A DNA stretch of 64,000 nucleotides from Rathayibacter sp. VKM Ac-2760 (GCF_009834185.1 NZ_CP047173.1:1391725-1455724); one strand, 5' to 3'. Positions 7,238 through 7,305 are shown, numbered from the stretch's first letter. Notes: generated by a model from the letters alone, not told the origin. Made by a program: numbers and translations.

Positions 7238-7305
7238 CACAACATCAGCTGAGAAGGCGACTCATCGCCGATGAGCGATGAGCCCCCGATTCAGCTGATG
7301 TTCTG
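7238..7305 (+). repeat. family-2 palindromic element, copy A
   Basis: CACAACATCAGCTGAGA ... TTCAGCTGATGTTCTG arms around a roughly 35-nt asymmetric centre (GCCGATGAGCGATGAG). Confidence 0.75.

Follow-up and report, generated by a model that had tools for sequence, protein, structure and literature searches.

The stretch of Rathayibacter sp. VKM Ac-2760 DNA analyzed here, 64,000 nucleotides long with a G+C content of 74% and referred to below as the window, includes five dispersed copies of a palindromic element of about 72 nt, named A to E. All five lie at the coordinates listed in a first-pass annotation of this DNA, and their number was confirmed by an nhmmer search of the 64 kb at maximum sensitivity (E≤1, filters off) using profile HMMs built from about 100 relatives, which found no further copy. 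The copies belong to two sub-types, type I and type II, and are located as follows.

7236-7307, plus strand: copy A, type I, with 34 nt between the 13-nt arm cores; arms at 7238-7254 and 7289-7305, GATG loop at 7270-7273; 13 nt past the stop codon (7321-7323) of a minus-strand AIR-synthase/GNAT gene and upstream of an aldehyde dehydrogenase gene.
16848-16920, plus strand: copy B, type II, with the 35-nt centre GGTGGGTCCCTCC-CCCCACAGC-GGAGGCCCTCCCT, which has no ATG; stem of 26 consecutive pairs; 47 nt past the stop codon (16798-16800) of a plus-strand gene for an AMP-binding enzyme.
34110-34181, plus strand: copy C, degraded type I with the variant arms CAGCCCGGAG / CTCTCAGCCG; GATG loop at 34144-34147; weak folding (z-score −2.3); within a variable 1.2-kb segment that is missing from strain VKM Ac-2856.
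37568-37639, plus strand: copy D, type I; the G variants in its two arms compensate each other; GATG loop at 37602-37605; 22 nt past the stop codon (37662-37664) of an amino-acid permease gene on the minus strand and 21 nt upstream of the start of a GNAT gene.
46025-46096, minus strand: copy E, type I, in which one arm is the variant CAGCCGGGAG; the plus-strand sequence of the loop is CATC (46059-46062); between the convergent stop codons 46012-46014 and 46121-46123.

According to GC3-based gene calls all five copies are intergenic, as the first-pass annotation had stated. Equally in agreement with it, the arms of copies B and D are perfect, those of copy D carry compensating A>G and T>C changes, and copy E is inverted when its orientation is judged by the loop. 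The position pair that is changed in copy D varies across the family, being A-U instead of G-C in 11 of the 60 type I copies compared. The 8-mer TCAGCTGA occurs seven times in the window, where 0.53 occurrences are expected and none of 100 shuffles reached seven, and all seven occurrences are found inside copies A, B, D and E.

Folding showed that each element consists, on either strand, of one long imperfect hairpin of about 72 nt with minimum free energies between −38 and −59 kcal/mol. The folding z-scores of four of the five copies range from −4.4 to −8.4 on both strands, and those of the degraded copy C from −2.1 to −2.3. From the outside inwards, the characteristics of type I include two to four flanking pairs, which are variable yet often complementary; a near-invariant arm of 17-19 bp, GCACAAC[A/G]TCAGCTGAGA and its complement, paired at 80-100%; a variable segment of 6-7 nt (6-8 nt across the family) of which only about 40-65% is paired; an inner stem of 9 bp, of which there are two compensating versions, CTCATCCAC/GTGGATGAG and CTCGCGCAC/GTGCGCGAG; and, at the apex of the 34-nt centre, a 4-nt GATG loop. 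Type II has the same arms, paired at 83-100%, and a 35-nt G/C-rich centre, GGGGGTCCCTCC..ACAG..GGAGGCCCACC, that does not include an ATG. The type I consensus (60 copies) starts with nCnGCACAAC and the type II consensus (42 copies) with CCCGCACAAC. A third variant of the arms, CAGCCGGGAG/CTCCCGGCTG, is found in copies C and E and is compensated on both sides in some relatives. The centre had previously been described as asymmetric, ATG-bearing and conserved in four copies, a description that has to be revised: it is self-complementary, so that only the 4-nt loop sets the orientation, the ATG is part of the GATG loop of the hairpin, and copy B represents the second sub-type with its different 35-nt centre.

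An alignment of 60 type I relatives was used to count pairs. Pairing was found in 80% of the cells, as compared to 30-46% when the partner was slid by one to three columns; changes on both sides of a pair numbered 201, as compared to 126 in shuffles; and the covariation score was reached by none of 500 shuffles. Among the possibilities offered for these elements, that of a structured element is therefore supported, in the form of a conserved covarying hairpin, by the folding, the pair counts and the comparison of orthologues of site E described below.

The near-invariant sequence of the arms, including the perfect 8-bp dyad, exceeds the needs of base pairing, and suggests either that the arms have a protein partner or that gene conversion among the copies is frequent. 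One explanation centered on this property is that a protein recognizes the elements as double-stranded DNA, i.e. as paired operators, BIME-like nucleoid or gyrase sites, or a site-specific recombination site, with the dimer-symmetric TCAGCTGA of each arm as the recognition element. We consider it quite unlikely. It would account for arm conservation far beyond the base-pairing requirement and for the presence of one 8-bp palindrome per arm, the two palindromes of paired arms being separated by a fixed spacing of 46-47 bp, but the complementarity kept by the parts of the element other than the arms is needless for duplex binding, and there is no recombinase or regulator gene nearby. The hexamer CAGCTG is not avoided, its 33 sites in the window being in line with similar hexamers; this speaks against a protein site of this kind and gives no indication of a link to restriction-modification.

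The distribution of the family was determined by an exact-pattern scan (TCAGCTGAG-N28-48-CTCAGCTGAYGT) of one genome per species, 185,579 species in total. The scan found 83 stretches, of which 81 are in Rathayibacter; the bearers are R. tritici, R. agropyri, VKM Ac-2754, Ac-2879, Ac-2630, Ac-2856, Ac-2857, and Leaf185. The remaining two matches are single and chance-like, in unrelated metagenome-assembled genomes. Considering the fetched DNA and the window together, the gap between the 13-nt arm cores is exactly 34 nt (type I) or 35 nt (type II) in 104 of 108 copies. No canonical copy was found in six 22-kb loci, those of R. caricis, Ac-2759, R. tanaceti, R. toxicus, Microbacteriaceae Ac-2854, and a JGI metagenome species, as compared to five in the 64-kb window, which indicates that the family is confined to part of the genus. 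The window DNA is 83-94% identical to that of element-bearing Rathayibacter genomes, and its nearest relative is VKM Ac-2857 (94% protein identity for one gene). One of the proteins encoded in the window has an exact match in a Logan assembly.

The earlier statement that the elements match no known family is correct at the sequence level, as judged by Rfam, the plasmid and phage collections, and the literature. At the gathering threshold a tRNA was the only Rfam match in the window, three loci that include seven elements gave nothing at E≤1, and close-ups of the elements gave sub-threshold miRNA-precursor noise, e.g. 34.5 bits versus a threshold of 86 bits. A known RNA family is ruled out by these scores below gathering. 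Literature searches gave nothing relevant on palindromic repeats of Rathayibacter or on RAYT/REPIN in Actinobacteria. The family is undescribed, but it belongs to a known class, that of the dispersed extragenic palindromic repeats.

The loop ATG had been taken as the possible start of a short reading frame. In that frame the amino acid sequence, M-V-D-E-x-x-S-Q-L-T-L-C, is the translated right arm, and the frame is an artefact of the conserved arm, with no conserved stop and lengths from 13 to 902 amino acids. That the element is a discrete small RNA gene, or encodes a small peptide from the central ATG (M-x-D/E-x-x-S-Q-L-T/M-L/F-C), is hardly credible. The presence of the ATG in 53 of the 61 type I copies and the similarity of the first 12 or so codons would fit a peptide; this similarity, however, is that of the translated arm, and the ATG is missing in the other eight type I copies and in all 42 of type II. 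By inspection, no Shine-Dalgarno-like sequence is visible upstream of the ATG in the consensus. The orientation of the elements with respect to genes is random, no promoter-like site was found in nucleotides 1-20000 of the window, which include copies A and B, and no Rfam family matches. The small ORF is ruled out by its variable length, the missing ATGs (copy B lacks it altogether) and the random orientation.

The genetic context was classified for 93 copies on the basis of GC3-based gene calls, and the expectation was taken from the gene pairs in the same sequences. Convergent genes flank 45 of these copies, tandem genes 41 and divergent genes 7, whereas 17, 58, and 17, respectively, were expected (chi-square, p~1e-12). 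A stop codon precedes the element in 86 of the 93 copies; the distance from the facing stop codon to the element has a median of 13 nt and is 25 nt or less in 54 of these 86, and in 17 of the 45 convergent cases neither stop is more than 30 nt away from the element. The location past stop codons together with the depletion in divergent promoter regions argues against transcriptional operators, including the paired operators that the first-pass annotation had considered. When the copies in tandem contexts are read in the direction of transcription the loop is CAUC in 13 cases and GAUG in 12, and orientation is random relative to transcription and to the neighboring genes. This nearly even distribution indicates that the two orientations of the element are equally used, or tolerated. 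When the tandem copies are read on the transcribed strand there are 72 G:U pairs versus 58 A-C mismatches, a difference that is not significant and thus provides no signature of selection at the RNA rather than the DNA level. A consensus scan of nucleotides 1-20000, which include copies A and B, found no promoter-like sites, and three terminator-like sites versus 1.8 expected, all three within called genes; canonical terminators are thus essentially absent from this part of the window and leave the elements without competitors for a gene-end role.

Other repeats were observed in the same kind of location. A second family of palindromes, with arms CGCGAGATGCCACTTGTGAGCG / CGCTCACAAGTGGCATCTCGCGG that are 15-17 nt apart, is present in the window at 2000-2074, 3999-4061, 18117-18213, and 58526-58598, starting from a few to about 56 nt past the stops at 1999, 3943, 18111, and 58519, respectively; it shares the gene-end niche with the 72-nt family. 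The orthologue of site E in the outgroup Microbacteriaceae VKM Ac-2854 (block L090, 11825-12176) consists of 352 nt of a different repeat, CGTTGGTTGAGCTTGCC, of which several copies are found together with copies of its complement, and other Microbacteriaceae may have gene-end repeat families of their own. The window also includes an intergenic tandem array at 27450-28122, between gene calls ending at 27104 and starting at 28303, made of alternating 27-nt inverted units, CGGCTCGCAGAATGACGTCCGGCTCGC / GCGAGCCGGACCGGTTTCCGCGAGCCG, with arms 17-23 nt apart within a pair and recurring at 99-109 nt. A large inverted repeat with 45-nt arms that include CCTGCAGATCG is found at 47108-47243. A similar palindrome, CGATCTGCAGGGGATCC, is present in R. 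caricis (block L085, 16592-16671), and the two may represent a third repeat family.

Orthologous sites were compared between species, starting with site E, for which the orthologues of the gene to the left of copy E were fetched. The site lies between a convergent pair consisting of a PRiA4-ORF3-like gene and a Zn-dehydrogenase gene. It is empty in R. toxicus, R. tanaceti, and Ac-2759, where 13, 22, and 18 nt, respectively, separate the two stops and no hairpin is present, which indicates that the element is dispensable at this site. A canonical element in the same orientation is found in the window, Ac-2857, R. rathayi, R. tritici, and Ac-2879, and a diverged hairpin whose arms are recognizably related in R. 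caricis and the JGI species. Across these seven hairpin-bearing species 12 of the 27 predicted pairs have changed on both sides and still pair. R. tanaceti has no element at site D (24 nt), where the window carries type I and Ac-2857, the closest relative of the window, carries type II; the latter two have homologous flanks and arms and differ in the centre alone. Site B is occupied by type II in the window and by type I in R. tritici (block L048), with the same gene downstream. The comparisons thus indicate that whole units are gained or lost, and also that centres are exchanged between identical arms or that sites are re-occupied. The view of the elements as a dispersed repeat that is gained and lost is supported by the species scan and by sites D and E. 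The exchange of centres between identical arms at orthologous sites would also agree with binding of a protein to duplex DNA, as would the fact that copies bound variable DNA, namely the 9.5-kb gene cluster between copies A and B, absent in R. tritici, and a low-GC insert in R. agropyri.

The segments of variable DNA were as follows. The 9.5-kb block between copies A and B (7321-16800) encodes a radical-SAM protein, an AIR-synthase-like/GNAT fusion, a DsrE-like protein, two carbon-nitrogen hydrolases, a flavin monooxygenase, a GT4 glycosyltransferase, and the AMP-binding enzyme. It has no match in the R. tritici block L048, where a single element, the orthologue of copy B by its right flank, and about 550 bp of unrelated DNA are found between the neighboring genes. 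The 1.2-kb segment at 33688-34875 includes the degraded copy C and small genes; in VKM Ac-2856 the segment is lacking and the flanking convergent genes are 20 nt apart. An ORF at 34145-34519 codes for a ribbon-helix-helix domain and is followed by a 79-amino acid gene call (34516-34755), and the two may be a toxin-antitoxin module. The approximately 1.46 kb at 39119-40578 are represented by only 74 bp in VKM Ac-2857 (block L024), and the gene call at 37662-41141 is probably the permease gene fused with this extra segment. In R. agropyri (block L058, 5241-7789) there is an insert of about 1.85 kb with a G+C content of 50-60%, as compared to about 70% in the flanks, and an unannotatable ORF of 408 amino acids. 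It is flanked by 350-bp direct repeats that are 97.7% identical and include one identical copy of the element each; the insert might mark an integration next to an element.

Turnover of this kind raises the question of mobility. At several loci a type I and a type II unit are neighbors with about 10 nt between them, and VKM Ac-2856 has five elements in 2.4 kb (adjacent blocks L081, 7500-8000, and L055, 1-1920), including a 275-bp repeated unit in which a type II copy is followed by a type I copy. The genes interspersed with the elements in this cluster are small and ordinary, a LacI regulator gene and one for what its sequence suggests is a DUF2510-type membrane protein, and the cluster is not a cassette array. 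Ordinary genes are likewise found between or beside the paired copies (SDR, HxlR, DUF559, rhamnose mutarotase, LacI). Among the genes that lie between paired or clustered copies or adjoin them, in the window and the loci examined, Pfam detected neither a transposase nor a recombinase. Direct repeats of 2-5 nt at four trial boundaries were as frequent as expected from shuffling, i.e. there are no target-site duplications; the flanks of the elements tend toward inverted complements rather than direct repeats. Neither GTAG nor CTAC is present at either end of the type I or type II consensus. The approximately 900 kb of fetched sequence yielded 205 arm matches, and these include no solo arms or arms spaced by kilobases; all belong to paired elements with the exception of one chance match in a non-Rathayibacter contig. 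An uptake-signal-like sequence is ruled out, as the arm motif is never found alone or inside genes. The collections of plasmids and phages had no matches to the element, and a plasmid or phage origin is ruled out on these grounds.

An explanation that we regard as possible, if rather unlikely, is that the family is purely selfish non-autonomous mobile DNA of the REPIN or MITE kind, with no host function and with arms recognized by an enzyme acting in trans. Copies would then survive only where they are harmless, just past stops and between convergent genes. The presence or absence of elements at orthologous sites and their dispensability where a site is empty, the restriction to a sub-clade of the genus, the fixed length with highly conserved arms and an interior free to vary, the adjacent type I and type II units and the five-copy cluster, and the lack of a strand-specific RNA signature are all compatible with this explanation. 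It would, on the other hand, be expected to leave traces that were not found: target-site duplications, solo or long-range inverted arms marking a parent (205 matches, about 900 kb), a transposase or recombinase gene between or beside paired copies, or copies on plasmids or phages. Moreover, interior and flanks keep their complementarity, which needs structural selection or a mechanism that generates palindromes. Selfish spread is compatible with the gene-end hairpin explanation that we favor below.

The element was compared to known classes of repeats. The REP, BIME, and REPIN sequences of Enterobacteria, Pseudomonas, and Stenotrophomonas (including SMAG) resemble it in being extragenic, multi-copy, G+C-rich imperfect palindromes with a bias toward convergent gene pairs and gene 3′ ends, and in having sub-types that lie side by side, as in BIME mosaics. 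A REP unit, however, has about 20-40 nt and a 5′ GTAG, while the element has 72-73 nt, about twice that size, and no GTAG; its host is an actinobacterium, and no RAYT (Y1) transposase gene was found among the genes between or next to paired copies. Membership in the REPs is rejected for lack of GTAG; the size of the unit and the absence of a RAYT gene near the copies agree with this. Like MITEs (Neisseria Correia, ERIC, RUP), the element is short and dispersed, with insertion polymorphism and a long RNA hairpin, and has terminal inverted repeats, its arms of 17-19 bp being 83-100% complementary across the family. Unlike MITEs, it has no target-site duplication, and palindromic, covarying sequence extends into its interior. 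Neither the approximately 900 kb of fetched sequence nor the plasmid and phage collections yielded a parent insertion sequence with matching ends. The suggestion that the copies are MITE-like DNA falls outside the definition for want of a target-site duplication, and of a parent element as far as these 900 kb are concerned.

The core consensus of integron attC sites is RYYYAAC...GTTRRRY, and the ends of the element, GCACAAC...GTTGTGC, match these cores at six of seven positions each, in a palindrome of attC-like length. Nevertheless, it is very improbable that the elements are integron-type recombination sites. Copies are 3.5-17 kb apart among ordinary chromosomal genes, dispersed in mixed orientation and forming no cassette array, no integrase adjoins them in the window or the loci examined, and their arms pair perfectly, without the bulged extrahelical bases that give attC its strand choice. 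For these reasons attC was rejected as an identity.

With bidirectional intrinsic terminators the element shares a strong G+C-rich hairpin located between convergent genes. Its outermost arms, CACAACAU / AUGUUGUG, are its most A/U-rich stretch and are located where A- and U-tracts would be. Unlike an intrinsic terminator, it has no run of U residues, and its stem of about 36 bp is far longer than typical. A canonical Rho-independent terminator is ruled out since no T-run follows the stem and the scan of nucleotides 1-20000 misses copies A and B. Mycobacterial RNA polymerase reportedly requires a U-tract (PMC3993855). The closest likeness in an actinobacterium is the TRIT (Tuberculosis Rho-independent terminator) hairpin of Mycobacterium, a conserved palindromic motif, mostly bidirectional, that is found narrowly at stop codons in one genus (Gardner et al. 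2011, PMC3152330). Both are palindromes conserved in sequence and structure, usable in both directions, narrowly positioned at stop codons, without a U-tract, and present in many copies per genome in one actinobacterial genus; the agreement in conserved palindrome, stop-codon placement and single genus is an analogy, set by the description of TRIT. The genus is a different one, most TRITs start inside the coding sequence (at about −8) while the median position of the element is 13 nt past the stop, and the element is set apart from TRIT by its constant length of 72-73 nt and by having two centre modules that can replace each other. The role of TRIT as a terminator is itself doubtful, since in Term-seq of M. 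tuberculosis the predicted terminators, each type tested including TRITs, were found at only 2-4% of the mapped 3′ ends (bioRxiv 10.1101/2022.06.01.494293).

The elements thus form a Rathayibacter-restricted family of covarying hairpins of fixed length, with conserved arms and modular centres, that are located at gene 3′ ends and undergo turnover. We consider it probable, by analogy, that they are a REP/TRIT-like family of gene-end hairpins of about 72 nt, similar in kind to the REPs of E. coli and the mycobacterial TRITs, with a role at the 3′ ends of transcripts. The role is proposed from the likeness to TRIT and to REP/BIME sequences, for which a bias to convergent gene pairs and effects on mRNA stability have been described (PMC3184786). 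Transcription of the upstream gene, from whichever strand, would generate an RNA hairpin of about 36 bp at the 3′ tail of the mRNA, and the element would thus be an orientation-independent 3′-end structure. Such a hairpin could be a terminator or pause site that dispenses with a U-tract, could block 3′-exonucleases or be a substrate for double-strand RNases, or could insulate converging transcription units. The spread and homogenization of the copies would be due to a process that recognizes the conserved arms or recombines through them. Several observations do not fit a 3′-end role easily: no U-tract follows the stem, the G:U counts give no sign of selection at the RNA level, three congeners do without a hairpin at site E, and a function of the hairpin alone does not account for arms so strictly conserved in sequence.

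The conservation of the arms leads to a speculation that we think unlikely but worth stating, namely that one sub-clade of Rathayibacter has a dedicated protein that recognizes the arms with their TCAGCTGA dyad, copies the elements to gene ends and exchanges centres between identical arms. A recombinase, a hairpin-binding transposase, or a double-strand nucleic-acid-binding factor may be candidates for this protein. If this were correct, the family would be an actinobacterial counterpart of the REP-RAYT system with a different enzyme and a modular cargo, and the elements could be recombination hot spots for the gain and loss of gene clusters, the 9.5 kb that separate copies A and B being an example.

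Canonical terminators are few in high-G+C actinobacteria, and both the ending of transcripts and the TRIT-like hairpins at stop codons are unsettled matters in this group. The gene-end hairpin family of Rathayibacter is a second, independent and very clean example, from another genus, and lends itself to experimental testing owing to natural empty sites in sister species, two interchangeable centres and nearly invariant arms. Within Rathayibacter the elements will confuse predictions of small RNAs and small ORFs as well as assemblies, and they mark the break-points of differences in gene content between species.
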